Shown here piece after piece: positions 1,190 to 56,594 of a stretch of 64,000 bases of DNA. The first letter of the stretch is position 1, and each line of letters opens with the position of its first letter. The notes under the pieces were generated by a model. It saw only the letters and a program-made list of their open reading frames with translations. It was not told where the DNA came from and did no database searches. Origin of the DNA: a virus (taxonomy: Duplodnaviria > Heunggongvirae > Uroviricota > Caudoviricetes); IMG/VR virus record IMGVR_UViG_3300048577_000420, positions 22,579 through 86,578 of that record; one strand, written 5' to 3'. The translations under genes and the position numbers were made by a program.

Positions 1190-1207
1190 TTCCTGCGAGC
1201 GCAGGAA
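1190..1207. promoter_or_regulatory. IR motif copy: TTCCTGC-GAGC-GCAGGAA (perfect 7-bp arms)
   Basis: Read directly from the sequence. Same motif family as the other 11 or more copies. Confidence 0.6.
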
Positions 1208-1468
1208 GCGCAGCGGCTGGCGCCGTCGGCGCCGCGTCGTGTGCGTTCCTTCCATCCCTAGTGCTGAATCGGAATCACTGGGAATGCACACCAATGGCTC
1301 CAAGATTCAGCGTTTCGGCGCCTGAAGAAGGCGCATTTTCCCCACCCGAGGGCCCGAAGGGGGCCGGCCTGGGCAGAGCTCTGGCTCCAGCTCGTGCGGC
1401 TCGCGCCCGCGCCCGGGCATGGCAAAGGGCCCGACCCCCGGAGGGATCGGGCCCTAGGGCCGGTCGGA

Positions 1469-2554
1469 CTAGGCGCGCGCCCCGAACCGGGCGAGCAGGG
1501 TCGCGCGCCCCGTAGCGGGGGCGACGCTCACGGGCGCGTCGGGCGCGTCCGTGGTGAGCGGGGCGACGCTCGGGACGTACTCCGAGCGGACCACCTGCGG
1601 ACGGGGGGCGAGGCCCTGGGCCGTCGCGCGCTCGCGCTGGGCCGCCTGGGACATCTCGGCGCGCTCCCCGTACAGGGACGCGCGCACGTCCTCGGGGATC
1701 GGCGCGACGGCGTGTGTCGTCTCGCCCGCCCATGGGAAACCGCCCGTCAGGTCACGCGCAGACGGGCGCATGTCGCGCCACGATGCGGCGTAGTCCCGTG
1801 CGTACGCGATCCGGTAGCGCTGGGACGGGGTGAGCCTGTCCGCGCTCATCGTGTGGCGCTCGATGTCCCGCACCCCTCCCAGGGTGCGCGTCTCGTCCTC
1901 CGCCATGATGCACGCGGCCCGATCGGCGACACGGTCCGTCACGTCACGGATGATCCGATCCACGGCGTCCCGGGTGGCGATGGGAGCGCGGCGCGTGTCA
2001 GGCGACACCAGGCCAGCGGCCCGAGCGACAGCGGTCCGGTTCACGCACCCGCGCGTCACGGCCTCCGGCACCGTGAGCCACGCGGACGCGACAACACGCG
2101 TCCCAGCGTCCAGCCCATCGCGCACGTCGTCCCACGACTCCCGGAGGAGGTCAGCGACCGGGCGCGACCCGTAGACACCCGGGCGCCCGTTGACGTCCCA
2201 CAGGGGGTCGCACAGCGCGTCCATCGTGTCCGGGGTGAGCGTGTCCAGGGAGACGAACGATCCCCCGCTGTTGGGACGGCACTCCGGCACGGCGTAGTGA
2301 GCGGGTGCGGACGGAATGCCCGTGACCGCCGTAGCGACCGCGTCCAGCATCGGCGCGGGCACAGCGGCCCATGCGGCCGTGCGCTGTGCCGATGTCTGCG
2401 CCGACAGGATGGCGCACGCGTGCTCCGCTACGGACGGCGTCAGGTCCTCGTCATCGGACAGTCGGTCCGTGACGCTGGCAGGCCGTGCGGCCCCTGGGTC
2501 CTTGTCGAGACCGTGAGCCGTGCGGCCCATCGTCTCGCTAGTGCTAGTGCTCAT
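1469..2554 (-). CDS. Hypothetical protein, 361 aa
   Basis: ORF track. GC3 is very high and composition is protein-like. The overlapping + strand ORF 1394..2647 is R/G-rich junk. Confidence 0.7.
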   Translation of the reverse strand: MSTSTSETMGRTAHGLDKDPGAARPASVTDRLSDDEDLTPSVAEHACAILSAQTSAQRTAAWAAVPAPMLDAVATAVTGIPSAPAHYAVPECRPNSGGSFVSLDTLTPDTMDALCDPLWDVNGRPGVYGSRPVADLLRESWDDVRDGLDAGTRVVASAWLTVPEAVTRGCVNRTAVARAAGLVSPDTRRAPIATRDAVDRIIRDVTDRVADRAACIMAEDETRTLGGVRDIERHTMSADRLTPSQRYRIAYARDYAASWRDMRPSARDLTGGFPWAGETTHAVAPIPEDVRASLYGERAEMSQAAQRERATAQGLAPRPQVVRSEYVPSVAPLTTDAPDAPVSVAPATGRATLLARFGARA

Positions 2555-2639
2555 CGTTCGATCCCTCCCGATCGGACCGGCGACACCATGCCTCCGGCCT
2601 GTTCCTCATTCTGTCTTCTTATCGGTCGGAACACCTTGC

Positions 2640-2720
2640 ACCCTTAGTGCTCATTCCGACTTTGTTACCGAACCGTTATCCACGGTAGTTACCGAATCGT
2701 TACCACTCGTGTCCCCCCCG
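2640..2720. repeat. Low-GC stretch with an 18-bp direct repeat GTTACCGAA(C/T)CGTTA(T/C)C present twice and an embedded GGTAGTTACC near-palindrome, upstream of lsr2
   Basis: Read directly from the sequence at about 2655-2700. Confidence 0.5.
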
Positions 2721-2907
2721 TTACTCGTGCCGTGACGGACCCCCCGCCGGCACCTAACGGCAGGTGGTCTCTCGCGATGGGGGCCGAGCGGATTTTCGAT
2801 AACGGGTCCTGTGCGCGCGCAGCATTGAGCCGCCGAGCGTGTCGATGACGCAGTCATCGAATCCGGCTACTCTCTCCGGGTCGAGACATCCACCCGAGGG
2901 AGAATCA

Positions 2908-3228
2908 GTGGCTACCCGCACGCATGTCGTCGTCACGGACGACATCACCGGCGCCGAGGGCGCGACCACGTACACGTTCCAGGTGGGCAAGGAGGCGTGG
3001 GAGATCGACCTCGCTGACCCGGCCCCGCTCTACGAAGCGCTCCAGCCGTTCATCGCAGCGGGGCGCAAGGTGAGCTCCCGGAGGGCCGGCCGAGTCAGCG
3101 AGCGGAACACGCACGCCGAGAGCTCGCGCATCCGGGCATGGGCCGTCGAGAACGGCTACGAGATCTCCGAGCGCGGGCGAGTTCCCGCGGCAGTGCGCGA
3201 GGCGTACGAGGCCGCCAAGGGGGCGTGA
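2908..3228 (+). CDS. lsr2: Lsr2-like nucleoid-associated xenogeneic silencer, phage-encoded
   Basis: N-terminal dimerisation-like segment VVTDDITGAEG..YTFQVGKEAWEIDL and C-terminal IRAWAVENGYEISERGRVPAAVREAYEAA with the RGR AT-hook motif typical of Lsr2. GTG start at 2908 with GAGGGAG RBS. Confidence 0.8.
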   Translation: MATRTHVVVTDDITGAEGATTYTFQVGKEAWEIDLADPAPLYEALQPFIAAGRKVSSRRAGRVSERNTHAESSRIRAWAVENGYEISERGRVPAAVREAYEAAKGA

Positions 3229-3534
3229 GGGCAGAGCCTTTCGTGGCTCTGACGTGCAGTCATGATGTCGATCCTCTGGGGGGAGTGGGGTCGCTGACTG
3301 CGGCCCCCTGCAGTCTCTGCGCGTTGTCGGGCAGGCATCGACCGTAACCAGCGGCACGAGGTGAACACGCCCGCGGGTCACTCGTCCGGACTATGCGCAG
3401 CGCCCCTCCGAGCCAGTCACGCGACCGTGTACGCGATGTGACAGGGACTTGTGTCCCAGAGATGAGCCCCTCGTCCGGGAACGGACGGGGGGCTCTCTGT
3501 CTTCATGCCAGCGTGTCGCCTCGCGCGACGCAGA

Positions 3535-3552
3535 TTCCTGCGCTAGCAGGTT
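3535..3552. promoter_or_regulatory. IR motif copy TTCCTGC-GCTA-GCAGGTT followed by the extension TCGTCGCGT, upstream of the 3599/sigma operon
   Basis: Read directly from the sequence. Confidence 0.6.
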
Positions 3553-3598: not shown

Positions 3599-3868
3599 AT
3601 GCTCCGGAGCCGACTTCGCCCCCCTCGCGAGCAGGGTCGCGTGCTCGGATGGTGCGAGAGGCACCTGCCGATCGGCCCCACCGGGCTCCAGGTCACGCTG
3701 TCGAAGATCGGGTACGGCGTCTCCCCCGCCGTGCATCGCGTGATTCCGTGGGTCGTTCTCGTGCTGCATTCCCGCACGCTCGACTTCACCATTCCGCTCG
3801 TCCGCATTCCAGGAGCCACGTACGCCGAGCTCTGGTGGGACGACGACGAGGGCTGGGACGAGGCCTGA
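3599..3868 (+). CDS. Hypothetical 89-aa protein, translationally coupled to the sigma factor gene
   Basis: Frame 2 is protein-like with high GC3. The alternative upstream extension of the sigma frame is R-rich junk. Stop overlaps the sigma ATG (TGATG). Confidence 0.45.
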   Translation: MLRSRLRPPREQGRVLGWCERHLPIGPTGLQVTLSKIGYGVSPAVHRVIPWVVLVLHSRTLDFTIPLVRIPGATYAELWWDDDEGWDEA

Positions 3869-4611
3869 TGTACGAGGTCGACGTCGCGGAGCTGAGGGCC
3901 CTGTGGAGCCGCGCCCGCGCCGGGGATCATGCGGCCACGGAGGAGCTCGTCCGGCGGTACCACTGGCTCCCTCAGAAGATCGCCCGGTCCAAGCGGGTTC
4001 CCCCGCACTTCGATCGGGACGACATGGTGTCCTGGGCGAACTCGGGCCTGTTCGATGCGGTTCGCAAGTTCGACCCCGACAGCGGCGACGGCGCGCTGCA
4101 CGAGCACTTCATCGGGTACGCCACGCTCCGGATCAACGGGGCGATCCTCGACGGCATGAAGGCGCCCGGTCAGTCCTGGGCGACCCGCGAGGTGTGGCGC
4201 CGGCTGCGCGCGATGGAGGCCACCGAGGCCCAGGTCTCCCAGGATCTCGGTCGCCCGGCCACCCGGCAGGAGGTCGCCGCGGCCCTGGGGACGACGGTCG
4301 CCGACCTGCCCGTGTTCCAGCAGCAGGTCGGCCTGCAGGTGCCGACCCAGGGCGGCGAGGTCCTGCTCTCGGACTGGCTCCCGGACCACGAGGGCACCGA
4401 GGAGGCCGTCGAGATCTCGGAGATGGTGGACCGCGTCGCGGAGAAGGTCTCCCAGCTGCCGGCCGAGCACCTCGACGTCGTGTCCCGGCTCTTCCTGCGC
4501 GGTGAGGACGTCAAGGACGTCGCCGCCGAGGTCGGGCTGACCATCACCCGCACCCGCCGGCTCCGCGCCGAAGCGCTCCTGCGCCTGCGCGACCTGCTCC
4601 AGCAGGGCTGA
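3868..4611 (+). CDS. Sigma-70 family sigma factor (FliA/WhiG/SigF-like group 3)
   Basis: Region 2 reads FDPDSGDGALHEHFIGYATLRINGAILDGM. Region 4 HTH reads LFLRGEDVKDVAAEVGLTITRTRRLRAEALLRLR. Confidence 0.8.
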   Translation: MYEVDVAELRALWSRARAGDHAATEELVRRYHWLPQKIARSKRVPPHFDRDDMVSWANSGLFDAVRKFDPDSGDGALHEHFIGYATLRINGAILDGMKAPGQSWATREVWRRLRAMEATEAQVSQDLGRPATRQEVAAALGTTVADLPVFQQQVGLQVPTQGGEVLLSDWLPDHEGTEEAVEISEMVDRVAEKVSQLPAEHLDVVSRLFLRGEDVKDVAAEVGLTITRTRRLRAEALLRLRDLLQQG

Positions 4612-11482: not shown

Positions 11483-12160
11483 ATGCCCGTACCCCAGGGC
11501 GCGACCACCGACGTCATCACGGCTGACGTCTGGAACCGCCTCGTCGCGGCCGCCAACCAGGTGCAGCTCTTCCAGGTCGGCGCCAACCCCTACACCGACC
11601 TCTCGCTGCCCGGCGACTACCCCCAGGGCGTGACCGCCTTCAGCATCGAGGACGCGACGGGGTCGACCTGGCCTACGAGCTGGGCAGTCGTCGAGACCGT
11701 GCGCGTCAACACCACGCGGTGCCTGCAGCGGGCCACGAACAACCTCGGGTACGTCTACCAGCGGGTGGCGAACGGCGTCACGAACGCATGGTCGGCGTGG
11801 TCCCTCGTCGCCGGCCCCTGCGCCACCGCGGTACCCACGGCCGGCACCGGCTGGACCCAGATCCCCGGCCTGGCCGACCTGCAGTGCGTCCGCGACGAGA
11901 ACCTCATGGTCACCGTGCAGGGCATGGTGCGCCGGACCGGCGCGTCGATCACCGGCGGGTCGACGGGCACGATCATCAGCCTGCCTGCGGGCTTCCGGCC
12001 GACGAAGGCCATCTACGCGAGCCAGGCGCGTGACGGCGGCGCGGCGAACATGATCTTCGACAACACGGGCAACGTCAGCGCGGAGATCGCAGGCACCTGG
12101 AACAAGGACATCTCGTACGTGTCCTTCCACCTGACCTTCAAGGCCGCGGCAGTCAGCTAG
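11483..12160 (+). CDS. Tail fibre-like protein, paralogous to the C-terminal domain of the 8699..11335 product
   Basis: TWPTSWAVVETVRVNTTRCLQRATN here matches SWPAPYAIVETIRTGIGRCIQRLTA in the upstream gene. Confidence 0.6.
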   Translation: MPVPQGATTDVITADVWNRLVAAANQVQLFQVGANPYTDLSLPGDYPQGVTAFSIEDATGSTWPTSWAVVETVRVNTTRCLQRATNNLGYVYQRVANGVTNAWSAWSLVAGPCATAVPTAGTGWTQIPGLADLQCVRDENLMVTVQGMVRRTGASITGGSTGTIISLPAGFRPTKAIYASQARDGGAANMIFDNTGNVSAEIAGTWNKDISYVSFHLTFKAAAVS

Positions 12161-13007
12161 CGAGCGCGTCAGCCCGTCGGGGCTTGCGGCCGCGATCGGA
12201 CTGCCACAGGCGCTCCATCCAGCTGTCCGAGCGCCCCACACGCGCCGCGGCGCTCCAGGGGTCCATGCCGTGGTCGACGAGGAACCAGTACTCCTCGCGC
12301 ACCGCCTCGGTGTCCATCGCATCCTCGTCGGCCAGGATCCCGGTCTCGCCGTCCCAGAGCGGGTCGTCGAAGAAGAAGTCCCGGTCGAAGGCCTCGGGCG
12401 GCAGCCAGCCGGCGGACCGCGCGACTGCCGCCGCGTGTCTCTGTGGTCCTGGCGTCAGCGCGTGCTCGCGGACGACGTCCATGAGCCGCAGCGCGTACTC
12501 CATCGTGACCTTCGAGCGCCCGTAGCAGTTGGCGTCCCCGTGCATGAAGCGGCGCATCATCGCGTGGCCGTAGCCCATGACGGCCATCGCCTGGAACCGG
12601 CGCCGGCTCCCACCTACGGGTGCGAACCGCGCCGCGTTCTCCAGGTGAGGCAGCTCGCGGAGCTTCTGCATCGTCACGGGCGCGACGTACTCGCCCCGAC
12701 CGTGCTGGATCTTCCAGAGCTGGCTCGTGCTGATCCCCGCGGCCGTCGCCACCGCCTTCATCGAGAGGTTGTGCAGCGCGGCCTGCTTGTGGAGCACGAC
12801 CGCCGCCTCCTGGACGGGCGTGCGCCACTTCCAGTCCGGGTTCGCATGGCGGCGGAGCTCGTGCTCCTGCGCGCGCCGGTAGCGCGTCCTCCCGTCGGCA
12901 CCCACGCCTGGCCTTGGCACTCGCGCACTCCTCTCTCGATGCTGCGACGGAGAGGTTGACCTGCGGAGACGCTCGCCGTCCAGGCAGGGCGATTCCTGCC
13001 AGCGCAC
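12153..13007 (-). CDS. XRE-type HTH DNA-binding protein, leftward-transcribed (candidate repressor or regulator). Start codon uncertain
   Basis: HTH segment LHKQAALHNLSMKAVATAAGISTSQLWKIQHGRGEYVAPVTMQKL. Opposite orientation to the flanking operons. An IR copy overlaps the putative GTG start. Confidence 0.6.
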   Translation of the reverse strand: MRWQESPCLDGERLRRSTSPSQHRERSARVPRPGVGADGRTRYRRAQEHELRRHANPDWKWRTPVQEAAVVLHKQAALHNLSMKAVATAAGISTSQLWKIQHGRGEYVAPVTMQKLRELPHLENAARFAPVGGSRRRFQAMAVMGYGHAMMRRFMHGDANCYGRSKVTMEYALRLMDVVREHALTPGPQRHAAAVARSAGWLPPEAFDRDFFFDDPLWDGETGILADEDAMDTEAVREEYWFLVDHGMDPWSAAARVGRSDSWMERLWQSDRGRKPRRADALAS

Positions 13008-13010
13008 GTT
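12993..13010. promoter_or_regulatory. IR motif copy TTCCTGC-CAGC-GCACGTT plus the TCGTCGCGT extension, in the divergent control region
   Basis: Read directly from the sequence. Shares both half-site and extension with the copy at 3535. Confidence 0.55.
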
Positions 13011-13277
13011 TCGTCGCGTACCGGGAGGGCGCCCGCGGCGGCCTCAGGATCTCCCTGCGGCTGTAGTGGCCGCGGCTCCCTCGTGGATGACCCGGGACGG
13101 CAACGCCGGGTGGGCTAAGGACTGGACACGGACACCTGTCTCCGACGGAGGCGTCGGCAGGGAACGGGCTCGGTCGCTCTCTCCGGACCACCGTGGCGTC
13201 GCCGCGGGGGGAAGGGGGGGCGTACCCAGAAGCCGTTTCCTGCTCCTCAAGAGGCGCCGTAGTCCTCCTTCCTGAAC

Positions 13278-13293
13278 GTGCTCTAGCAGGAAG
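13278..13293. promoter_or_regulatory. IR motif copy in reverse orientation (reverse complement CTTCCTGC-TAGA-GCAC)
   Basis: Read directly from the sequence. Confidence 0.5.
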
Positions 13294-15827: not shown

Positions 15828-15835
15828 CGTGCGCT

Positions 15836-15853
15836 TCCTGCGCTAGCAGCAAT
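15836..15853. promoter_or_regulatory. IR motif copy TTCCTGC-GCTA-GCAGCAA
   Basis: Read directly from the sequence. Confidence 0.6.
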
Positions 15854-21020: not shown

Positions 21021-21838
21021 CCACGGCCGAGATCAGGGACCGCCTGAACCCGCGGCTCCCCGGGCGCCGGATCCTCCGCGCGGTTCCTGCGCCCGCAGGT
21101 TCCGTCACGAGCGCGCCGGCCTTCGTCGTCGAGGACCCGGACTCGAACCGGGTCGTGCTCGCCCAGCCGATCGAGACCGCCGCCTTCACGGCTGACGACT
21201 TCCTGCTCAAGTTCCGCGGCCGCCTCGTGCGCGCCGAGCAGGCGAACCGCAACGGCGCCTTCTGGTCCTCGAAGGACCTGGAGTTCGGCCTGCCGTCGGT
21301 CGCTCACGGCCCGCTCAACTGGGGTCACGACGTCGCGACGATCGTCGGCACCCTCGTCGACCCGAAGCTCGTGAAGGCCGAGCACGCCGCGGCGGGCGCG
21401 GGCACGCACATCCAGACCGGCGCCGTCATGTGGGCCTACCTCTACCCGGAGCGCGCGCGCGTCCTGCGCCAGCACATCGACTCCGGCACCGCGTGGCTCT
21501 CGATGGAGTGCGTCTCGAACGAGGTCGCGTGCGTGGGCCCGAACGGGTGCGGCGCCGTCATGCCCTACGCGGACGCGCAGATGCGCACTGGAAAGGCGTG
21601 CCAGCACATCAAGGAGCGCGCCTCGCACCGACGCTTCGTGAACCCGATCTTCCAGGGCGCCGGCGTCATCGTGCCGCCCCAGGCGCCCGGCTGGGCGGAC
21701 GCGCACATCACCGGCGTCGCCGAGGCGGAGGGGCTGGCCGAGGCCGCCTCCCTGCAGGTGCCCGGGCTGAGCGACGCGGACGTCGTCGGGATGGTGGCTT
21801 CGATCCTGGAGTGGTCGAAGAACAAGGCCGCGAGCTGA
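21017..21838 (+). CDS. Hypothetical protein, possibly a head maturation protease (by position)
   Basis: Follows the portal and is coupled to it (GTGA). No clear catalytic triad could be assigned by eye. Confidence 0.45.
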   Translation: MTTAEIRDRLNPRLPGRRILRAVPAPAGSVTSAPAFVVEDPDSNRVVLAQPIETAAFTADDFLLKFRGRLVRAEQANRNGAFWSSKDLEFGLPSVAHGPLNWGHDVATIVGTLVDPKLVKAEHAAAGAGTHIQTGAVMWAYLYPERARVLRQHIDSGTAWLSMECVSNEVACVGPNGCGAVMPYADAQMRTGKACQHIKERASHRRFVNPIFQGAGVIVPPQAPGWADAHITGVAEAEGLAEAASLQVPGLSDADVVGMVASILEWSKNKAAS

Positions 21839-23378: not shown

Positions 23379-23396
23379 TTCCTGCGGGCGCACGAT
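23379..23396. promoter_or_regulatory. IR motif copy TTCCTGC-GGGC-GCACGAT followed by TCGGCGT, upstream of the scaffold/capsid operon
   Basis: Read directly from the sequence. Confidence 0.5.
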
Positions 23397-25587: not shown

Positions 25588-25628
25588 GGCCCCTGGGGAC
25601 ATACCCGGGGGCCTTCCCCTTTCTGCGG
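25588..25628 (+). terminator. Hairpin GGAAGGCCCC-loop-GGGGCCTTCC followed by CCTTTCT
   Basis: 10-bp perfect stem read directly from the sequence. Confidence 0.6.
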
Positions 25629-25637
25629 TAGCAGGAA
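25620..25637. promoter_or_regulatory. IR motif copy TTTCTGC-GGTA-GCAGGAA followed by TCGGCGCGT
   Basis: Read directly from the sequence. Confidence 0.6.
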
Positions 25638-29568: not shown

Positions 29569-29586
29569 GACCTGCGAGCGCAGGAT
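29569..29586. promoter_or_regulatory. IR motif copy GACCTGC-GAGC-GCAGGAT followed by TCGCTGCC, between the moron and the major tail gene
   Basis: Read directly from the sequence. Confidence 0.5.
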
Positions 29587-35300: not shown

Positions 35301-37531
35301 CGATCGTGGCCGCCGACAAGTCGAACGTCTTCCAGGACTTCTCGGTCGACGGGATCAACTCGACCCTCAAGGAGCTGACCGACCAGGGGTACAACGCCTC
35401 CGAGCGCCTGGAGCTCCTCAACCGCGCGCTCTTCGACTTCACGAAGCAGACGGCCGGCGCCAAGGACGCCTTCGCGGTGCTCAACCCCGAGGAGCGCACG
35501 GCCGTCGGGGCCAAGTCCGGCCAGATCCTCGTCGACGCCGTCTCCAACGCGAAGTCGCTCTTCCAGGTCAGCCAGTCGGAGTGGACGTACGGCGTCAACA
35601 CCGACCGCAAGGACCGGCCGAGCTCGTACGCGCTCGGCGAGGCGATCGACCGCTTCACGCTCTCGTCGAAGGACGAGACCGCGCTGCGCGACGCGATGGC
35701 CCGCACGATGGAGGAGTCGCTGGCCACCTGGTCGGCCGGCGGCGTCATCGACAAGGAGGACGTCGACCGGATCGTCGCCGACGTCCAGTCCGGAGCCCAG
35801 ACCGCCCTCGGCAAGGACCGCTGGAACGACCTCGTCAAGGACGGCCAGGTCGAGCTCTTCAAGTCCATGCTCTCCTCGCAGGTCCGCGGGATGCTCGCGG
35901 GCTTCGGGGGCACGCTCACGCGCGACAGCATCGCGGGCTTCATGCAGGTCGCCCCCCAGGTCGCCCAGGCGCGGGGCGAGCTCGTCCAGCAGCAGACCGG
36001 CAGCTCGCCGCTCGGCAACGAGGCCACCCTGGCCGCGCTGCAGAAGAACCGCGACGACCTCATGGCGGTCGTCGACCAGAGCGGCTCCCCCCTGACCGAG
36101 GAGGAGCAGCGCGACCTGGCCAACCTGGACCTCTCGATCCTCCAGTGGAAGCGGACGGTCCTGAGCGACCGCATCCAGGCGATCCAGACGATCACCGGGG
36201 TCGCGCAGTCCAGGCTCGCGGACGACGACGTCTTCGGCCGGCTCACCCTGAGCCAGCAGTCCGTGGCACAGCAGCGCGCCGCGGACGCCGGCAACGCGCC
36301 CTCGATCCTCAACGGCGGCAAGTGGGACCCGGCGTACGCCCAGCGTGAGGCGGCCCGGCAGGCGCAGGAGGTCGCCGACGCCAAGGCCCTCGCGCAGGCC
36401 AACCTCCAGGGGACCCAGAACCGTAACCTCGCGAACGTCGGCGCGAACGACGCGCTCGGGCGGTCGCGCGTCGAGATCGAGAACTCCCGCCTCTACCTCA
36501 ACTCGCTCACCGCGGGCTCGCCGGAGTACTGGGCCGCCGTCGCCAACCTCAACCAGGCCCAGTTCGCCTACGCCCAGGCCAACGCGCAGAACACCTCGGC
36601 CAACGCGCTCGCGAACATCGACCCCCGCGACAACCTCGCGCGGATCAACCAGCAGATCGCCAACGCGCGGCGCGAGATGGCCCTGCTCCCCTCGAACCAG
36701 CGGGGGCAGTACCGGGAGCAGATCGCACAGCTCAACCAGCAGTACCAGGAGGGGCTGGTCTCCCAGGCGAACGCTGCTGCTACCGCAGGAATCGCAGGCA
36801 ACCGGTCCTCGATCGACCAGGCCCGCGTCAACCTGGCGAACGCCAACCGCTCCCTGGGCATCCAGCTGCAGGGCACCGAGTCCTACTACTCGGCGCTCTC
36901 CGGCGTCCGCGAGGCGCAGTCGGCGCTCGCCCAGGCCGAGCGCGAGCAGGCGGACCGGGTGGCCCGACTCGGCTCGGACCTCACCAACCCGGTCGAGCAG
37001 GCGCGCCTCGACGTGGAGAAGGCCCGAGCCCAGCTCACCGCCGACCAGGCGTCCGGCCAGGGCCCCGACGTCGTCACGCAGGACCAGCTCGACCTCAAGA
37101 ACGCCCAGAACACCCAGGAGGCCGCGGCCTTCAACCAGCGGATCTCCGACCTGCAGACGGCCGAGGACCTCGGGCGGATCTCGCACACCGCCTACATGAG
37201 CTACCTGCAGGCCGAGCACGACCGCCTGAGCGCCGTGGCCAACCGGACCCGGCAGCAGCAGGAGCAGCTCGACCAGGTCGACAAGCTCATGAAGAGCGCC
37301 TCGGAGCAGATCCAGGGCCAGTTCAACATCGGCGACATCAAGCTCCCGACGATCTACGAGGTCCGGCGGGCGATCGCCTCGAACGCGCCCACCTCCGTCG
37401 CGGACTACAGCCACTCGAACAACGTCATCAACATCAACGGCGCCCCGCTGGAGCAGGTCCTGGAGTACCTGGAGACCTACCTCGGCGCCGGCGCTCAGGT
37501 CGTCACCGCGACGGCGGGGAGGAAGATCTGA
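32384..37531 (+). CDS. Tape measure protein (1715 aa)
   Basis: Size and position. Long Ala/Gln-rich helical repeats. ATG with GAGGGGGTGAGGG RBS. The antisense 1717-aa ORF is an artefact. Confidence 0.85.
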   Translation: MAEESENVLIGIEYTGSAAVEKFGADLSAVPAELGAVIKEMAAVAGKDENVVRASAKALAQAFIATWKLEMAEAQGLLSGVGINRGNFTSTAVGSLGLTDPKQLAAATRVIEQVRRQMDAGASSVLKATDLAPTIRALQQVESQADRTQRALQGAAAAQAKVSSTPTVMQRDLQAIQKAPVAPDVRERLTKQLAQDTPVRQAIVERRAAGDDSGARTLAADLGTTRYQVMAADKEYLDLIAALRQESAAHREAAEAARVRAVGGSGASMGLGAQITPWQVGRSAYWQTDMGQRFATQMGLPTSAFGGPTMPAADASWWQRNFMPGLSARLTEQVAALPKAEQRQVSPNPGFKQSFTTAFTHEDEPGAFGQMVGQTARVSLFYGVAYRALSALQQGLEQAVQETVAYEDALTSLNIVTGRTRSANEELAGTLSDIAAAAGYTPSQGVALGSKALGLYGVASADQATQEHTIEVSATVATRMARVANADPVGTQGQLAGALRSLGWGIDRLPELEDTISFISRQTGQAPTELLGAVSNIATLGTQAGFTPQQLAALVAQVGTTTGQNPESTAGQFRQLLSRSAPEIASQASGIVGVDLTGLDLQQIFAKVSQLSLSADQLNAFASLFGKGGSQQVATILTQQYGAVQKLSTEAQAPENAGFGRRAYDEAMTSFGNRVKELGGQFAQFGVALIETGVLDWLGALVVAITQLVEVGTKVLGWFNELPRPLRSVALALAEVYGAALLIGKTGIGAKALGGVAGTALDLLPTRVTNRVLSTSADAVTESQVTRLFARGAQGPLMADGRFATNQVSAATLRAALGTDVSALFAQGGPLRLSADARLAASQSGTLLGRAQGATGLTGLGMAGAVGAAALAAGTIYEGFKVTNDAQARVDEARAALAAAKSLDELRDATALARNSMQDLRQEGLEGLKTGDVVNLIPALMTSLLTGGEKKALQETADEGQRRADALQQYRDTIVAADKSNVFQDFSVDGINSTLKELTDQGYNASERLELLNRALFDFTKQTAGAKDAFAVLNPEERTAVGAKSGQILVDAVSNAKSLFQVSQSEWTYGVNTDRKDRPSSYALGEAIDRFTLSSKDETALRDAMARTMEESLATWSAGGVIDKEDVDRIVADVQSGAQTALGKDRWNDLVKDGQVELFKSMLSSQVRGMLAGFGGTLTRDSIAGFMQVAPQVAQARGELVQQQTGSSPLGNEATLAALQKNRDDLMAVVDQSGSPLTEEEQRDLANLDLSILQWKRTVLSDRIQAIQTITGVAQSRLADDDVFGRLTLSQQSVAQQRAADAGNAPSILNGGKWDPAYAQREAARQAQEVADAKALAQANLQGTQNRNLANVGANDALGRSRVEIENSRLYLNSLTAGSPEYWAAVANLNQAQFAYAQANAQNTSANALANIDPRDNLARINQQIANARREMALLPSNQRGQYREQIAQLNQQYQEGLVSQANAAATAGIAGNRSSIDQARVNLANANRSLGIQLQGTESYYSALSGVREAQSALAQAEREQADRVARLGSDLTNPVEQARLDVEKARAQLTADQASGQGPDVVTQDQLDLKNAQNTQEAAAFNQRISDLQTAEDLGRISHTAYMSYLQAEHDRLSAVANRTRQQQEQLDQVDKLMKSASEQIQGQFNIGDIKLPTIYEVRRAIASNAPTSVADYSHSNNVININGAPLEQVLEYLETYLGAGAQVVTATAGRKI

Positions 37532-45104: not shown

Positions 45105-45152
45105 ATTCCGCTGCGCTAGCAGGAATCGCCGCGAAACCTGCGCTAGCAGGAA
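45105..45152. promoter_or_regulatory. Tandem pair of IR motif copies: ATTCCgcTGC-GCTA-GCAGGAAT and AACCTGC-GCTA-GCAGGAA, 30 bp centre to centre
   Basis: Read directly from the sequence. Lies in the 360-bp non-coding hub between the late and early regions. Confidence 0.65.
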
Positions 45153-45282
45153 GCAGCGCCGCTTGCGTCCCTGTCGGAGGCTGTGCGTAGAGTCCTCACC
45201 ACAAGCGAATCACCGGCCCGGACAGCGGGCCAGGCATCCGCGGCCTGAGCGCCGGGATGAGCCACCAAAGCAATCGGCTGAG

Positions 45283-49594: not shown

Positions 49595-49638
49595 TTCAGC
49601 AAGAACAGCACCGAGAAACGAGAAGGGAAAACAACGGA

Positions 49639-50130: not shown

Positions 50131-50214
50131 CGGACCCCGGCGGGGCGGTATGCCCACGCGCGCTCTGCGGACCGCGCCTGTAGCCCGCCCCGCCGGCCGC
50201 CCGGCTCCCACCAC

Positions 50215-50232
50215 TTCCTGCGCTAGCAGCAA
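50215..50232. promoter_or_regulatory. IR motif copy TTCCTGC-GCTA-GCAGCAA upstream of the primase-helicase
   Basis: Read directly from the sequence. Identical to the copy at 15836. Confidence 0.6.
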
Positions 50233-50246
50233 TCGAGAGGATCCCC

Positions 50247-52835: not shown

Positions 52836-53385
52836 CGAGAACCTCCGCATCGCCCTGACGAAGGCGATCGCGGATGCGATGGCCGGCGCGATGGCCAAGC
52901 TGCGCGAGGCCCACTTCGCCACGCTCCTGGAGCAGTACGACGAGGTCGGCACCAAGCAGTTCTCCGTGGCCCTGCCGGACGGCACCAAGGTCGCCACGAT
53001 CACCCTGACCGAGAAGAAGGAAGCCTTCGAGGTCACCGACGAGATCGCGTTCCTCACCTGGGCCCAGGAGAACCTGCCCGAGGACGCGATCCACGAGGTC
53101 GTCGTCCCGCCCGTCCCCGAGATGCGCTTCATCGAGGTCGACCCGAAGGCCCAGGCGGCGCTGATCAAGCGGCTCGACCACCGCGGCGACCTCGCCTTCG
53201 ACCCCGAGACCGGCCAGGCCGTCGACGGCATCACCTACCGGCCCGCGGGGCGCCCGTCGCAGTTCGCGGTCACGTACGTGAACAAGGACGAGGGGCGCGA
53301 GCGGCTCATCGACGCCTGGCGTGCCGGCGACCTCGCCGAGCTCGTCGGCACGGACGTGCTGCCCGCGATCGAGAGCGGGTCCTGA
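52822..53385 (+). CDS. Hypothetical protein
   Basis: ORF track. Confidence 0.5.
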   Translation: MSLRDENLRIALTKAIADAMAGAMAKLREAHFATLLEQYDEVGTKQFSVALPDGTKVATITLTEKKEAFEVTDEIAFLTWAQENLPEDAIHEVVVPPVPEMRFIEVDPKAQAALIKRLDHRGDLAFDPETGQAVDGITYRPAGRPSQFAVTYVNKDEGRERLIDAWRAGDLAELVGTDVLPAIESGS

Positions 53386-53846
53386 TGGGGTACGCCGAGA
53401 AGACGGACGTCTCCAGTGCGCAGTCGCGCATCGAGCTGGAGCGGATCCTGGAGCGCTACGGCGCCGAGCAGTTCGCGTACATGAGCCGCCCGGGACAGGC
53501 CGTGGTCGCCTTCGTGCACCTCGACCGCCAGGTGCGCTTCGTCCTGCCGCTGCCGGACCGGAACGACCGTCGCTTCACGCACACGCCCGACCGCGGCCTG
53601 GTCCGCTCGGCTGACGCGGCCGCGCGCGAGTACGAGCAGGCGGTTCGGCAGCGGTGGCGCGCCCTGTGCCTGGTCGTCAAGGCCAAGCTCGAAGCGGTCG
53701 ACGCGGGCATCACGACGTTCGACGAGGAGTTCCTCGCGAACCTCGTGCTGCCGGGCGGCGCGAGCGTCTACGAGTCGATCGCCGAGGACATCTCGGTCGC
53801 CCGCCTCACCGGCGCCGTGCCCGTGCTCCAGATCGCGGCCCGATGA
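53385..53846 (+). CDS. Hypothetical protein
   Basis: ATGA coupling. Confidence 0.5.
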   Translation: MGYAEKTDVSSAQSRIELERILERYGAEQFAYMSRPGQAVVAFVHLDRQVRFVLPLPDRNDRRFTHTPDRGLVRSADAAAREYEQAVRQRWRALCLVVKAKLEAVDAGITTFDEEFLANLVLPGGASVYESIAEDISVARLTGAVPVLQIAAR

Positions 53847-53989
53847 CACCGGCCCCCTACCCGTGCGCGGCGCAGCCCGGCCGCGGCCTCGTCCATCTCG
53901 ACGGGCCGTGCCGGTGCTTCGCCGGCGGGCCGGCGCCTGCCTTCCCGCAGGTCCCCCGGCTCGACGAGGGCGAGGGGGCGAAGTGAGCG

Positions 53990-54181
53990 ATGGAGCAGGA
54001 CCGGATCTACCAGGCGATCGCCAAGAGGCACAGCGGCCTGAAGCAGGACGGCTTCCCCGGACTCGACCAGGTCGACGCAAGGGCACGTGGGCCGCTCGCG
54101 AAGGTCTTCGCCCGCGAGGCGGGTGTGACCCGCTGGCGGGAAGTCGAGGTGTGGCCCCAGGAGGAGGACGCAGGTGAATGA
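53990..54181 (+). CDS. Small hypothetical protein
   Basis: ORF track. Confidence 0.35.
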   Translation: MEQDRIYQAIAKRHSGLKQDGFPGLDQVDARARGPLAKVFAREAGVTRWREVEVWPQEEDAGE

Positions 54182-54674
54182 CCCGACGGACGGCACCGTC
54201 TTCGACGCGCTTCACCGGCTCTTCGGGGCGGGCGAGTTCACCGGGGACGACGCCGAGTGGCACCGGTGGCGGGCGCAGGAGATCTCGAAGATCAAGGCCT
54301 ACCGCACCAAGCGGAACGTCGACCCCTTCGAGCTCGTGCGCGCCGCCCAGTACTGCCGCCGCCACGGCATCTGGATCAGAGCCCATTGGGAGCTCTACGA
54401 GCACCTCGCCGCGGCCAACCGCGAGGAGCTCGACCGCCAGCGCGCCGCGGAGATCGCGGACCTCGACGGCCTCATCGAGGACGCCCTGGCGATCGAGCTC
54501 ACCAACCCGGACAGCCCTTGGGTCGACCGGCTCATCCGGGCCGCCGGCCCCGCACGGAAGGAGGTCTACGACGCATGGAAGCAGTGGTCCTCCGCTTCCC
54601 AGCGCCGCGACGGGACTGCACCGACTGCGCCTTCCACCGGGCCGGCTGGTGCACGACCTGGGGGGAGGCCGTAG
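54174..54674 (+). CDS. Hypothetical protein. The 3' end has low GC3 and an overlapping alternative frame, so the stop is uncertain
   Basis: GTG start. ORF track. Confidence 0.45.
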   Translation: MNDPTDGTVFDALHRLFGAGEFTGDDAEWHRWRAQEISKIKAYRTKRNVDPFELVRAAQYCRRHGIWIRAHWELYEHLAAANREELDRQRAAEIADLDGLIEDALAIELTNPDSPWVDRLIRAAGPARKEVYDAWKQWSSASQRRDGTAPTAPSTGPAGARPGGRP

Positions 54675-55049
54675 GTGGCCCGTCGTCTGACCTGGACGCC
54701 CAAGCCTGCGAGCACTTCGAGCGCCAGGAAGGCGAAGGTCGAGCTGACGGGCAGGCACCGGCACGGGTGTACGACCTGCAGCGCCACCTACGAGGACGCC
54801 TGCGACGACCCCTGGGCGAACGGCCGCTGCACCCCTCATCGCCACCCTGAGCGGCTCGCCCCGATCTGGGAGCAGAACCTGCGCCCGCAGGAATGCTGCG
54901 CCGCCTCCATCGAGGCCACGCCCGCCGACATCGCGACCTACCGACTCGGCGGCGACGCGCCCTGGTGGATCTGCCCGACCTGCAAGAGACCCCACATCTT
55001 CAAGCCGCGCCCGACCGGGCCCGGCGAGACCCGAGAGGAGAGCACGTGA
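54675..55049 (+). CDS. Cys-rich putative zinc-binding protein
   Basis: GTG with GGGGGAGG RBS. GC3 about 88%. Contains HGCTTCS and CPTCKRPH. Confidence 0.5.
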   Translation: MARRLTWTPKPASTSSARKAKVELTGRHRHGCTTCSATYEDACDDPWANGRCTPHRHPERLAPIWEQNLRPQECCAASIEATPADIATYRLGGDAPWWICPTCKRPHIFKPRPTGPGETREEST

Positions 55050-55459
55050 CCACCACCCCTGCTGACGACGAGGTCGACTTCGACCCCGACGCCAAGCCCG
55101 ACGACTTCGACACCGCGATGGGCCAGGCGCTCGCCGAGGCGGCCGGCAGCGCGCCGCGGCACAACGTCGGCGGCTCCGACGACGCCGAGCGCGAGCCCCT
55201 GATGTTCGAGGGCCGCGAGGTCAAGAAGACCGAGGTCGTCATCAAGGGCCTCACCGGCCTGTCCGAGGCGTACGAGGGCCTGAGGATCGGCATGGACGAC
55301 CGCGTGCGCCTCGTCGTCGAGACCCGGGCCACGAAGGTCAACCACTACGTCGACAAGGACGGCGAGCTCGTGCGCTCGCAGGAGCTCAAGGTCCTCGTCG
55401 CGGACATCGTGCCGTGGGACCCGACGAACCCGAGCGACGACGGGATCCTCCGCGCATGA
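55046..55459 (+). CDS. Hypothetical protein
   Basis: GTGA coupling. Confidence 0.5.
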   Translation: MTTTPADDEVDFDPDAKPDDFDTAMGQALAEAAGSAPRHNVGGSDDAEREPLMFEGREVKKTEVVIKGLTGLSEAYEGLRIGMDDRVRLVVETRATKVNHYVDKDGELVRSQELKVLVADIVPWDPTNPSDDGILRA

Positions 55460-55773
55460 GCACCCACGCGGACATCCTGACCGCGCTCGCCGAGCCCCGA
55501 GCCGAGGTCATCCTCGCCGGCGACCGCGTGCGCACCCGGGACGCCTTCTACCGCGTGGCGTCCCGGGTGGACCCGGTCACGATCTCGCGTGCCGTCGGTC
55601 GCGAGCACGTCGAGCTCGGCAACGGCGCGCGCCTCCTGGTGGCTCCGGGCTGGCCGCAGATGCGCGGGATGCACCCCGACCGGATCTTCGTGCTCGGCGA
55701 GCTCAGCGACCAGTTCCGCACGGAGTGCATCGCCCTGCTCCGGCCGGGCGGCGTCCTGGTGCACGAGCCGTGA
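55456..55773 (+). CDS. Hypothetical protein
   Basis: ATGA coupling. Confidence 0.45.
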   Translation: MSTHADILTALAEPRAEVILAGDRVRTRDAFYRVASRVDPVTISRAVGREHVELGNGARLLVAPGWPQMRGMHPDRIFVLGELSDQFRTECIALLRPGGVLVHEP

Positions 55774-56291
55774 GGGCGCTCCTGGCCATCGACCCGGGCA
55801 ACACAGAGTCCGGCTGGGTCGTCATCGACCCGACGACCAGCCGTCCGCTCGCCTTCGCCAAGAGCCCGAACGCCGAGCTCCTGGAGATGCTCCGCGGCCG
55901 CTACTTCCCGGTGAGGGCGGCCCAGGCCGGCGCGAGCGAGACCGCCTTCGACGTCGACCGAGTCGTGATCGAGATGGTGGCGTCGTACGGGATGCCCGTC
56001 GGCGCGGAGGTCTTCGAGACCTGCGTGTGGATCGGGCGCTACCAGCAGGCCCTCGTCGACGAGTGGAGCCTCGACGCGGCCCTCGTCTACCGGCAGCCGG
56101 TGAAGCTCCACCACTGCCATTCCACGAAGGCGACCGACGCCAACATCCGCCAGGCGTTGGTGGACCGGTTCGCGAAGGGTCTGCCCAACTTCGGGAAGGG
56201 CACCAAGAAGGCCCCGGGCTGGTTCTTCGGATTCGGCAAGGACGTCTGGCAGGCGTACGCGCTCGCCGTCTACGCGGCGGACACGGAGTAG
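55770..56291 (+). CDS. RuvC-fold Holliday junction resolvase
   Basis: N-terminal LAIDPGNTESGWVV (RuvC/YqgF-like D-P-G motif). Confidence 0.6.
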   Translation: MRALLAIDPGNTESGWVVIDPTTSRPLAFAKSPNAELLEMLRGRYFPVRAAQAGASETAFDVDRVVIEMVASYGMPVGAEVFETCVWIGRYQQALVDEWSLDAALVYRQPVKLHHCHSTKATDANIRQALVDRFAKGLPNFGKGTKKAPGWFFGFGKDVWQAYALAVYAADTE

Positions 56292-56594
56292 GTGCACGTG
56301 ATCACGCTCGGGGTCCGAATGACGGCGCAGACGGACGGTTCGCAGGTCTGTCAGGGGGACCCCGAGCTGTTCTTCTCGGAGGTCTCGGCCGACAACGTCG
56401 CCGCAGCCAAGGCGTGCAGCCACTGCCCGTTTCAGCTGCCGTGCCGCCTCGAAGGTCTGGTCAACGACGAGGAGGGCGTGTGGGGCGGCTGGTCCTACAA
56501 CCGGCGCCGCCGGATGGGTCAAGCCGGCCGCCAGCGCGCAATCGAGGAACTGCGGTTTCTGCTAGCACAGGAAAGGACGGGATTGGCCTCTTGA
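56292..56594 (+). CDS. WhiB-like (Wbl) Fe-S transcription factor
   Basis: Four Cys spaced C-X22-C-X2-C-X5-C plus the GVWGG turn motif. The alternative ATG at 56319 gives a shorter product. Confidence 0.75.
   Translation: MHVITLGVRMTAQTDGSQVCQGDPELFFSEVSADNVAAAKACSHCPFQLPCRLEGLVNDEEGVWGGWSYNRRRRMGQAGRQRAIEELRFLLAQERTGLAS
56556..56573. promoter_or_regulatory. Degenerate IR copy TTTCTGC-TAGC-ACAGGAA inside the 3' end of the WhiB-like gene
   Basis: Read directly from the sequence. 5 of 7 arm matches. Confidence 0.35.

Follow-up and report, generated by a model that had tools for sequence, protein, structure and literature searches.

A repeated 18-bp palindrome at transcription-unit boundaries of a prophage as a candidate operator family for one dimeric regulator

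What reads a palindrome that recurs across a whole phage genome, and with what effect? The repeat has the form TTCCTGCG-NN-CGCAGGAA (commonest version TTCCTGCGCTAGCAGGAA) and was studied in a stretch of 64,000 nucleotides, hereafter the window. The original prediction of a genome-wide family of 18-bp inverted repeats is borne out, since the TTCCTGCNNNNGCAGGAA pattern with at most two mismatches matches 11 times in the window against 0.13 expected from shuffles, and none of 100 shuffles attained this count. Moreover, a symmetrised matrix made from sites of related phages only gave 20 window matches at a cut-off of at least 8 bits (shuffle mean 1.4). The proposed intergenic enrichment is also found, as 12 of these 20 matches are intergenic while the non-coding share of the window is only 6.7% (P = 3e-9). 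Thirteen copies are convincing (no strand is assigned to the palindromes):

1190..1207, palindrome copy TTCCTGCGAGCGCAGGAA (29.0 bits), the sole one with all seven arm pairs, between leftward genes and 80 nt upstream of the start of gene 969-1109 (minus strand)
3535..3552, palindrome copy matching pattern and matrix, 46 nt before ATG 3599, the start of a small ORF that precedes the sigma factor gene
12993..13010, degenerate copy TTCCTGCCAGCGCACGTT (14.5 bits), where the leftward HTH gene and the helicase gene diverge
13275..13292, palindrome copy AACGTGCTCTAGCAGGAA (21.9 bits), followed by an SOS-like box and, 73 nt downstream, by the helicase start ATG 13366
15835..15852, palindrome copy matching pattern and matrix, in a packaging-side operon, 7 nt past the stop codon at 15827 and 47 nt ahead of GTG 15900
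21084..21101, palindrome copy matching pattern and matrix, 67 nt into ORF 21017-21838, which follows the portal gene
23379..23396, palindrome copy matching pattern and matrix, 86 nt before ATG 23483 of the scaffold/capsid block
25620..25637, palindrome copy matching pattern and matrix, 71 nt before ATG 25709
29569..29586, palindrome copy GACCTGCGAGCGCAGGAT, in a divergent gap with ATG 29661 74 nt downstream
45108..45125, upstream copy of a tandem pair at the early-right promoter, from matrix match and cross-phage alignment
45135..45152, downstream copy of the pair, matching pattern and matrix, with 13 invariant core positions in three phages
50215..50232, palindrome copy matching pattern and matrix, abutting the ribosome-binding site and ending 14 nt before GTG 50247 of the primase-helicase gene
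56556..56573, palindrome copy TTTCTGCTAGCACAGGAA (26.5 bits), within the final codons of the WhiB gene, with ATG 56604 30 nt downstream

All copies listed originally are present, three of them at shifted coordinates (15835 instead of 15836, 13275-13292 instead of 13278, 45108-45125 instead of 45105); the copy at 21084 is additional, and that at 56556, with its 26.5 bits, is not degenerate as had been stated. The gene at ATG 29661 is a putative major tail gene from its first label and gene order. Four other matches are uncertain:

36774..36791, pattern and matrix match inside the tape-measure gene, without counterpart in the fetched part of the 012974 tape-measure gene
54876..54893, pattern and matrix match inside ORF 54675-55049, without counterpart in the orthologue on L113
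55367, coding-sequence match
62216..62233, weak copy AACGTGCTACCGCACGTT (8.7 bits), with the serine integrase gene 108 nt downstream

The window is identical to a 440-kb JGI contig across their overlap, with host genes at the right end, where the window itself closes on an integrase gene:

62342..64000, plus strand, large serine integrase gene, extending past the window end

The host genes begin about 67 nt beyond this end, which identifies the element as an integrated prophage, in line with the temperate lifestyle proposed for it; its host is a GC-rich bacterium. Two further strong copies lie in the same prophage to the left of the window (window coordinates -5195 and -369), which brings the total to about 15.

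Nearly every transcription unit has such sites at its boundaries, the usual arrangement being a terminator followed by the palindrome, then a promoter or ribosome-binding site, and then the gene. Their proposed location at the starts of transcription units, mostly intergenic and genome-wide, is thus confirmed, and the statement that all but one are intergenic and 30-120 bp upstream is approximately true: 14-232 nt separate the sites from the following start codon, and the copies at 21084 and 56556 lie within genes. Independent strong terminator hairpins end 40 nt upstream of the copy at 3535 (hairpin 3464-3495), about 14 nt upstream of that at 23379 (a terminator-like hairpin at about 23320-23361, -41.5 kcal/mol) and 2 nt upstream of that at 25620 (the post-capsid hairpin at about 25584-25617), leaving these three sites without read-through and with scant room for an upstream promoter. 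In the late operons the sites lie 13-21 nt upstream of a conserved GTCGAGTRC element, and the tandem pair, with a centre-to-centre spacing of 27 bp, precedes a promoter:

45163..45193, plus strand, SigA-like early promoter TTGCGT-N19-TAGAGT, conserved in three phages

Here both palindromes are upstream of the -35 element, the copy at 45135 ending 10 nt before it. The position of the sites relative to promoter-like elements is therefore variable, and several are only 11-30 nt from start codons, which leaves no room for a downstream promoter. Host-type SOS (LexA) boxes adjoin some sites.

Seven of the positions recur in orthologous gaps between genes of related metagenomic phages, up to four in number, amid diverging flanking DNA; at the early promoter, for example, the palindromes form a conserved island between diverged flanks in an alignment of three phages. 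The site before gene 15900 is kept in four phages, with orthologous copies of 15835 in 012974, 012827 and 014502, two of which have the spacer flipped. Orthologous copies were also found for 21084 at the portal junction (L122:15032 in 012827), for the post-capsid 25620 (012974 and 014502), for 29569 at the tail gene (L054:17326, with a variant motif at L056:20786), for 50215 at the primase (L113:1756, start codon 11 nt downstream) and for 56556 (L113:7430, where the WhiB orthologue ends), and 012827, like the window at 3535, has a copy upstream of its Lsr2/sigma genes (L114:8676). The same 15-bp core is shared by phages whose TerL is only about 56-81% identical. In the more distant relative 020138, the motif TCTCCGC-GCTA-GCGCAAA occupies orthologous spots, both arms having changed together, and L112 lacks the motif.

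The symmetry of the site bears on its function. The half-site is approximately (CGA)TTCCTGC, half-site centres are 11 bp apart and both arms carry nearly equal information content. About five or six window copies have a 3' extension, TCG-N-CGCGT, which had been taken as a hint of a composite operator-promoter. This was not upheld: in relatives the 5' side carries a mirror image of the extension, so that the arms reach up to 13 bp (sites in 012827 read ACGCGA-core-TCGCGT), and the flanks are significantly complementary (P = 7e-8), while in the window the left half of the extended palindrome is mostly decayed (P = 0.03). The asymmetric extension is the remnant of a longer palindrome. A related possibility is that a promoter specific to the phage coincides with the motif or lies within it, the extension acting as a -10-like element for a sigma factor that the phage encodes:

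3868..4611, plus strand, phage sigma factor gene, FliA/WhiG-like, conserved in relatives

The location of the sites at operon starts directly past terminators, an orientation bias in the window (seven of eight asymmetric spacers point one way) and the intergenic repeat motifs of other sigma-encoding actinophages (PMC7302621) are consistent with such a promoter. However, the arms, 11 bp apart, are too close for -35 and -10 elements, nothing is conserved 16-18 bp downstream of TTCCTG across phages, start codons follow at anything from 11 to 232 nt, and orientation flips at orthologous sites and opposes the flanking genes in 012827, where three sites between rightward genes are reversed. Moreover, phages with an identical core do not share a conserved sigma factor region 4, which shows partial deletion, whereas region 2 is conserved even in 020138 despite its different arms, and GTCGAGTRC persists in 012974 without a palindrome. 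A sigma promoter is thus the least probable of the readings considered here; the sigma factor gene would itself be under the control of the regulon, and its product is an unlikely reader of the palindrome, a role in which it had also been proposed.

The palindromes could instead function at the level of RNA or single-stranded DNA, forming hairpins in transcripts that serve 5'-end stability, RNase processing or tail-less termination between cistrons, comparable to the RNase III sites of T7. Indeed, they are inverted repeats in short gaps, some against a ribosome-binding site (50215, L113:1756), their flanks differ among phages yet remain complementary, both arms of the 020138 motif are altered jointly, and in 012827 arms of 10-13 bp form hairpins down to -24.9 kcal/mol with z-scores to -7.4. 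Against this, full pairing is limited to one of the 13 window copies, whose core hairpins reach only -1.1 to -9.7 kcal/mol with half of the z-scores above -1, and the minimum-energy fold of the 34-nt stretch at 23379 leaves the arms unused. Mismatches that recur, for instance position 16 against C3 in every 012974 copy, have no compensating change anywhere, a U-tract is absent, and the conservation concerns sequence and not pairing alone. The separate canonical terminators 2-40 nt upstream would also shield the sites from upstream transcription and make them redundant as terminators. We therefore regard a function as hairpins as quite improbable.

Variable promoter distance, flipping orientation and uncompensated mismatches, unfit for a promoter or an RNA hairpin, argue for double-stranded DNA operators. 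Our preferred reading, to which we give a probability of roughly 0.55, is that the repeats are operators for one sequence-specific, two-fold symmetric (dimeric) regulator, encoded by the phage and working chiefly through repression. Such a single regulator most likely governs the whole prophage through its about 15 sites and, by analogy, is probably the prophage repressor, since the variable geometry (14-232 nt to start codons) suggests repression more readily than activation or promoter function. That the sites serve a repressor, and not an activator or an architectural protein, is what we infer from geometry and analogy. In the lysogen it would silence the early, regulatory, replication and structural operons, by promoter occlusion where a site adjoins or overlaps promoter elements and by a roadblock where it abuts a ribosome-binding site, a mode modelled on the use that the phiC31 c repressor is understood to make of its conserved inverted repeats.

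The original prediction of a dimeric phage regulator touching every transcription unit is thus supported in that the sites are best read as operators for a dimeric protein; that its reader is phage-encoded we infer, and none of the binders named at the time is supported. The best candidate by position is the following gene:

12153..13007, minus strand, leftward Xre-like HTH gene, whose start codon may be at 12920

Members of this family adjoin paired sites in all four phages, but the recognition helix differs among phages that share the core motif and thus does not co-vary with it. The same is true of the HTH_31 protein (16604-17203), whose recognition helix does not track the motif, and the WhiB-like protein found no support either. 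The phage also encodes an Lsr2 protein. That no phage regulator co-varies with the motif would be expected if a host transcription factor bound the sites and the phage exploited it as a physiological cue, with no reader of its own. The core shared at such TerL divergence and the adjoining SOS boxes, which would mean that host regulators are in use here, point the same way. However, when 185,579 representative genomes were scanned for the exact pattern, they yielded scattered single matches only and no regulon-like set, so the palindrome is not a repeat of any of these bacterial genomes, and 7 kb of host flank held just one weak match. The different motif of 020138 and its absence from L112 are more easily explained by a phage-specific reader, and the flanks are phage-specific. 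We consider a host factor as doubtful as the hairpins.

A non-transcriptional role, such as loading or boundary sites for a nucleoid or partition protein (KorB/ParB-like), Lsr2 counter-silencing, recombination or replication, is also unlikely, although it ranks first among the alternatives. It would fit the genome-wide spread that includes late genes, the few copies in coding sequence and the presence of Lsr2. On the other hand, placement is tied to transcription-unit boundaries (terminator, site, gene) and not evenly spaced, and the main early promoter has the tandem pair directly beside it. In RK2/IncP plasmids, about a dozen palindromic operators spread over the mobile genome serve one global repressor, KorB, at variable promoter distances. 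The likeness lies in the dozen or so copies of one palindrome, but KorB is a plasmid protein of the ParB family, and Pfam, PHROG and NCBIfam scans detected no ParB/KorB-like protein here. Repeats of cluster O mycobacteriophages (17 bp, TGTTCGGNNNCCGAACA) and cluster EG Microbacterium phages (18-bp inverted repeats), which have no known function and are thus compatible with an architectural role, are similar in their arms of about 7 bp, short spacer, 8-34 copies and mostly short intergenic locations, in EG often 14-22 bp upstream of start codons; their central-spacer asymmetry is independent of the direction of transcription, as here, and a dimeric binder was predicted (PMC4351075, PMC7302621). 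They differ in sequence and belong to apparently lytic phages, whereas the present sites are in a demonstrable prophage and pair with terminators and promoter-like elements.

The stoperators of cluster A mycobacteriophages, originally offered for comparison, are likewise many sites across a temperate genome, in short gaps near start and stop codons, and block elongation as well as initiation (PMC9283540). The predicted operators share this spread in short intergenic gaps, but stoperators are 13-14 bp long, asymmetric, monomer-bound and oriented with transcription, whereas the present sites have dyad symmetry and flip at orthologous positions; in addition, cluster A relies on a gp71-type immunity repressor, and no L5 gp71 homologue was found here.

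The closer parallel is phiC31, an actinophage that, like this element, is temperate and has a serine integrase. It carries 15 copies of a palindrome over its late and early regions, 14 of them intergenic. These conserved inverted repeats (CIRs) are bound by the phiC31 repressor isoforms. Both systems thus have one palindrome of about 17-18 bp in about 15 copies, nearly all intergenic, and share positions upstream of the terminase gene and a regulator gene and downstream of the capsid and tail genes. The CIR, CCTACTCAC|GTGAGTAGG, is spacerless and unrelated in sequence to TTCCTGC-N4-GCAGGAA with its spacer, and while the c repressor binds the CIRs, the operators here are predicted and the 73 kb examined hold no c homologue. 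The control proposed here would thus be of a type already known from phiC31, in this case in an uncharacterised phage lineage.

The window (71% G+C, nearly all genes rightward) appears to represent a lineage without cultured or annotated relatives, judging from INPHARED, in which megablast found no nucleotide match to it and the closest large terminase (TerL) is 39% identical. Exact-protein matches place the window on the JGI metagenome contig Ga0498942_000115 (440,389 bp, sample 3300048575), with two checked overlaps identical at 11,109/11,109 and 13,648/13,648 bases. Host-type genes (AI-2E transporter, dnaE2-type and ImuB-type polymerases) start about 67 nt beyond the right window end, and phage genes (Ku protein, C5 DNA methylase, numerous small leftward ORFs) run on for at least 9 kb leftward of it; the element is therefore an integrated prophage. 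Its integration site adjoins the AI-2E transporter gene and the dnaE2/imuB cassette. Our searches for the phiC31 c repressor span the window and about 9 kb of left flank, a further 7-11 kb or so of prophage lying outside, as estimated from related contigs of 81-84 kb.

Main features of the window
2908-3228, Lsr2-like protein
3868-4611, FliA/WhiG-like sigma factor
5809-6912, putative lysin with peptidoglycan-binding domains
8699-11335, tail fibre
12153-13007, leftward, Xre-like HTH gene
13366-14886, UvrD-like helicase
16604-17203, HTH_31 protein
17200-18816, TerL
19314-21020, portal
24593-25567, capsid-like gene, assigned from gene order and without a functional match
32306-37531, tape measure (1741 aa), assigned from size and position
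45358-62158, replication/early block, with a PD-(D/E)XK nuclease, an AAA_24 protein, a primase-helicase, a Holliday-junction resolvase-like protein and a WhiB-like protein
56292-56594, gene of the WhiB-like protein
62342 to window end, large serine integrase

Three regulators are thus combined in this single prophage: a WhiB-like protein, a xenogeneic silencer of Lsr2 type and the FliA/WhiG-like sigma factor, region 4 of which diverges quickly. The adjacency of the Lsr2 and sigma genes is kept in three phages. The idea of a promoter for a single-subunit RNA polymerase was rejected, as the 878-aa ORF at 8699-11335 is a tail fibre with Collar and CBM domains and not a polymerase. A metallophosphoesterase gene (400 aa, 22109-23311; phrog_20266, E = 6e-96) lies between the portal-proximal and the scaffold/capsid genes and has no counterpart at that position in the related contigs 3300012974_000535 and 3300020138_000006. 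In the early-right operon, ORF 59716-60078 has a phage ProQ C-terminal-like domain, of a family related to RNA-binding proteins. Finally, two isolated leftward ORFs, 28901-29521 (-) and 44732-44989 (-), stand amid rightward operons, each facing a palindrome-bearing gap; both are conserved in relatives, and neither has a family or solved-structure match.

The 18-bp inverted repeat TTCCTGC-N4-GCAGGAA (window motif TTCCTGCGCTAGCAGGAA; 24-bp form CGATTCCTGCGCTAGCAGGAATCG) constitutes a real, conserved family of cis-regulatory repeats in the prophage. The pattern TTCCTGCNNNNGCAGGAA with at most two mismatches has 11 matches in the window versus 0.13 expected. Because circularity had to be avoided, a symmetrised matrix was built from 15 sites that all come from related phages; at a threshold of at least 8 bits it matches the window 20 times, versus 1.4 in shuffles. 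Twelve of these 20 matches fall in the 6.7% of the window that is non-coding (P = 3e-9), so that the intergenic enrichment proposed as a check in the original prediction held with a relatives-only matrix. Thirteen copies in the window are convincing. Every copy listed originally is present, some at slightly shifted coordinates, an additional one lies at 21084, and the copy at 56556, described as degenerate, is instead a strong one within the last codons of the WhiB gene. Matches within coding sequence at 36774, 54876 and 55367 are of uncertain status, and no counterparts of the first two were seen in relatives. Two further strong copies lie left of the window, at -5195 and -369, each of them between called genes.

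Elsewhere, the 17-base core gave only scattered single matches across phyla among 185,579 representative genomes, the sole multi-copy loci being repeat stretches in two Bacteroidota MAGs. A metagenome scan returned an already-known 84-kb contig and one chance match, nothing else. The 7 kb of host flank contain one weak match to the motif, and we consider it unlikely that a host factor reads the sites.

The relatives of the window are a small contig family within IMG/VR, referred to below by the first part of their record numbers (012974, 012827, 014502 and 020138).

Related contigs
3300012974_000535, 34 kb, TerL 81% identical to that of the window
3300012827_000001, 84 kb, TerL about 63% identical
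3300014502_000248 (26 kb) and _000555 (12 kb), identity about 56% for TerL and 70% for the primase
3300020138_000006 (81 kb) and 3300020148_000022 (15 kb), TerL 66% identical

An identical core is found at orthologous intergenic positions in 012974, 012827 and 014502, and the non-coding flanks around conserved sites are poorly conserved in the same alignments. The positions involved are listed here, where L113 is a relative locus and L122 a stretch of 012827.

Conserved positions of the palindrome
Main early promoter, palindrome in three phages with 13 core bases invariant
Gap before the orthologue of gene 15900, palindrome in four phages
Gap after the capsid gene, palindrome in three phages
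Gap before the major tail gene, palindrome at the orthologous position
Primase-helicase gene, immediately ahead of the start codon, at 50215 in the window and at L113:1756
WhiB gene, 3' end, at 56556 in the window and at L113:7430
Portal junction, at 21084 in the window and at L122:15032

Sites are also gained and lost: 012974 has no copy before the scaffold gene, and another relative locus (L112) has none before the primase gene, which would be the pattern expected of transcription-factor site turnover. The sister phage 020138 carries a variant, (GA)TCTCCGC-GCTA-GCGCAAA(TC), in three orthologous gaps of contig 3300020138_000006 (L056:7441-7458, 14621-14638 and 20786-20803). With respect to TTCCTGC/GCAGGAA, positions 3/16 and 5/14 are altered in both arms in a dyad-consistent manner and the GCTAGC centre is retained. 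This diverged motif could represent a natural switch of specificity (immunity).

The commonest order around the sites is terminator, palindrome, promoter or 5' UTR, and gene. For example, strong terminator-like hairpins with T-rich tails precede the copies at 3535, 23379 and 25620, ending 40, about 14 and 2 nt before them, and the 70-nt stretches upstream of these copies fold at -40 to -44 kcal/mol. The early-right promoter, a conserved SigA-like TTGCGT-N19-TAGAGT, has two palindromes in tandem upstream of it, 27 bp apart, and in three phages the nearer one stops 10-11 nt short of the -35 element. In the scaffold and tail operons a conserved GTCGAGTRC element follows the palindrome at a distance of 13-21 nt, and at the primase gene and several sites in relatives it ends 11-30 nt from the start codon, abutting the RBS. 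An architectural or boundary role of the sites is given a small chance.

Other signals were noted as well. A structured leader of about 150 nt (45194-45357) separates the early promoter (-10 TAGAGT, 45188-45193) from the ATG at 45358 and is conserved in two other stretches (L017:2548-2712 and L005:10628-10792). At its 3' end is a long hairpin, at about 45281-45334, with co-variation in the distal part and TCTTTTCGTTTTCC after it. The leader has no Rfam match and looks like an attenuator or antitermination leader. In addition, Actinobacterial LexA-type SOS boxes (CGAAC-N4-GTTCGA; two exact, one with one mismatch) are present at 13335-13349, 15863-15877 and 25661-25675, all intergenic and just downstream of palindromes, ahead of the helicase gene, gene 15900 and gene 25709; the post-capsid box may be incidental, because its left half is not conserved in 012974. 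The heptamer GTTCGAT occurs six times, always on the + strand (2556, 13344, 15872, 18839, 25670 and, in coding sequence, 4050); the other five are intergenic, and those at 13344, 15872, 18839 and 25670 sit 17-39 nt upstream of start codons. After the capsid gene, GTTCGATGGA is conserved in 012974. Since a CGAT core is common to sigma-28/WhiG -10 elements, GTTCGAT could serve as the -10 of the phage FliA/WhiG-like sigma factor, instead of or besides being part of a LexA box. The broader pattern GTT?CGA[TG]N was rejected as a promoter element, showing no intergenic enrichment (P = 0.16); only the narrower GTTCGAT is enriched. Finally, three phages have GTCGAGT(A/G)C(C/T)TCC ahead of their scaffold and major-tail genes (window 23418-23430 and 29601-29616, with orthologues in stretches of 012974 and 020138, L054 and L056); in the window it is also found at 4612 and 31183. 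The tail-gene element is complementary to the downstream GGAGGTACTCATG, which holds the RBS and start codon, suggesting a 5'-UTR stem that would sequester the RBS.

The site itself is an 18-bp dyad with 7-bp arms of near-equal information content and a 4-bp spacer, its half-site centres lying 11 bp apart; the matches at 1190, 21084, 29569 and 54876 belong to a fully symmetric sub-type, CCTGCG-NN-CGCAGG. The 3' extension noted in the original prediction is present in about five or six window copies, and its interpretation as part of a composite operator-promoter gave way once the left flanks were found to mirror it. In 012827 the flanks read (AC)GCGA-core-TCGC(GT), with complementarity at 51/90 positions versus 26.5 expected (P = 7e-8), and in 012974 they read CCTG-N-CGCG ... 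CGG-N-CAGG (P = 0.004); flank symmetry is weak in the window (49/130, P = 0.03). Because of this mirroring in relatives, the extension is what remains of a longer palindrome whose outer arms are phage-specific, not a promoter-like asymmetry. Seven of eight CTA-type spacers in the window point rightward; three of the nine sites found in 012827 oppose the flanking (rightward) genes, and the spacer of the site before gene 15900 is flipped in two of four phages. Site orientation is thus not functionally tied to the direction of transcription.

These features bear on the possibility that the palindrome is a promoter for the phage sigma factor, which is unlikely: the arms are 11 bp apart, the wrong distance for -35 and -10 elements (about 17 bp), no conserved partner element lies downstream of them, orientation flips, and the distance to the start codon varies from 14 to 232 nt in the window, or 11 to 232 nt with relatives included. 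Moreover, sigma region 4 is not conserved among phages sharing an identical core, and conservation of region 2 extends even to the phage whose motif is altered. An ECF-type or sigma-70-type promoter inside the motif was likewise rejected, no conserved -10 being seen at the right distance by eye and by spacing, and a strict sigma-70 scan of window bases 1-60000 found no promoter.

A function in RNA, as a hairpin or terminator element, is also unlikely, because canonical terminators already stand immediately upstream of the sites. Full 7/7 pairing is found in just one of the 13 window copies, recurrent arm mismatches are never compensated, core hairpin energies are weak (-1.1 to -9.7 kcal/mol), and half of the 34-nt stretches are no stabler than shuffles; there is no U-tract and no Rfam family match. 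The same uncompensated mismatches and rarity of full pairing, in a core conserved across phages, are what a dyad bound as DNA would display. We therefore favour, with a probability of roughly 0.55, the reading that the palindromes are operators, that is, double-stranded DNA sites for one dimeric sequence-specific regulator. It rests on dyad symmetry and sequence conservation irrespective of pairing, on orientation independence, flexible geometry and the prophage lifestyle, and on the presence of sites at early, regulatory, replication and late operons alike. The operator idea advanced at the outset was, in that respect, broadly right. The regulator would most likely be a prophage-silencing repressor, acting by occlusion where sites are near promoters and as a roadblock where a site abuts the RBS; site geometry and analogy are what point to a repressor specifically.

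The binders initially put forward are not supported: the leftward HTH, the HTH_31 protein and sigma region 4 all fail to track the motif in a recognition-helix comparison covering two HTH families and sigma region 4. A distant homologue of the leftward Xre-like HTH adjoins sites in four phages (window 12153-13007, L114:17784-18608 on 012827, L054:2430-3278 and L056:3384-4133), and in two of the four, sites lie 47 nt upstream of its operon, a placement that would fit autoregulation. Its recognition helix reads STSQLWKIQ in the window, CLETISKVL in 012827 and SGAAIAEIL in 012974, all with the same core, and the window helix is nearest to that of 020138, where the motif differs. Matches of this protein to PDB profiles are weak ones to Xre/phage-repressor HTHs (E = 0.008-0.04). 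The HTH_31 protein encoded before TerL shows no partition that tracks the motif. Pfam, PHROG and NCBIfam scans of about 65 ORFs, many without an assigned fold, found no other DNA-binding domain, and family scans and PDB profiles gave no match for the conserved 85-aa ORF 44732-44989, divergent from the early promoter. The best matches to the phiC31 c repressor in the window and 9 kb of left flank (tblastn, BLASTP) had E = 0.009 over 45 aa, and to gp71, the L5 immunity repressor (tblastn), E = 1.5.

There is an outside chance that the reader of the palindromes is something other than a conventional HTH repressor. They may be bound by a regulator of unrecognised fold, for example the 85-aa protein or one encoded in the unsampled part of the prophage, or extruded as hairpins or cruciforms, which may mark transcription-unit boundaries together with the adjacent terminators. 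Were this true, the whole prophage would be served by one palindrome-based 'punctuation' system, superimposed on SOS boxes, the FliA/WhiG-like sigma factor of the phage and an attenuator in a leader RNA.

The operator reading has a close parallel in phiC31. Scanning its genome directly, we found 15 copies of the palindrome CCTACTCAC|GTGAGTAGG, of which 14 are intergenic. One position is ahead of the terminase gene; others follow the terminase, capsid, tape-measure and tail-fibre genes, precede the repressor gene or lie inside it, or are spread through the early region. These repeats are the conserved inverted repeats (CIRs), the binding sites of the c repressor. As in phiC31, a near-perfect intergenic palindrome recurs over early and late genes of a temperate phage with a serine integrase; unlike in phiC31, whose CIR is CCTACTCACGTGAGTAGG and not the window motif, no c-repressor homologue is present in the window and 9 kb of left flank. 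The architecture is the same as that of phiC31: the repeat sequence and phage lineage are new, the kind of system is known. The stoperators of cluster A phages, the preferred analogy of the original prediction, are asymmetric, monomer-bound and oriented (PMC9283540). They are 13-14 bp long, whereas the window site is an 18-bp dyad with near-equal arms; their orientation is tied to transcription, whereas sites of the window family flip; and they are read by a gp71-like monomeric two-domain repressor, of which the window search gave no homologue. The analogy is thus not borne out, and the resemblance is functional only. Other repeat families are known from cluster O mycobacteriophages, where a 17-bp dyad without known function is present in more than 30 copies and its spacer orientation is unrelated to transcription (PMC4351075), from cluster EG Microbacterium phages, in which an 18-bp inverted repeat occurs in 8-10 copies, 14-22 bp ahead of start codons, and from the sigma-factor-encoding clusters EC and EI, which have intergenic repeats of their own (PMC7302621).

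The finding leaves current concepts unchanged. It provides a ready-made map of the transcription-unit boundaries of the prophage and, in the site, a precise 18-24 bp bait with which to fish for its master regulator. The functions of the cluster O and EG repeats are still unknown, and the present case, which combines a demonstrable prophage, conservation at orthologous sites and a diverged motif in a sister phage, is a good system for finding out what they do and for learning how immunity specificity evolves.
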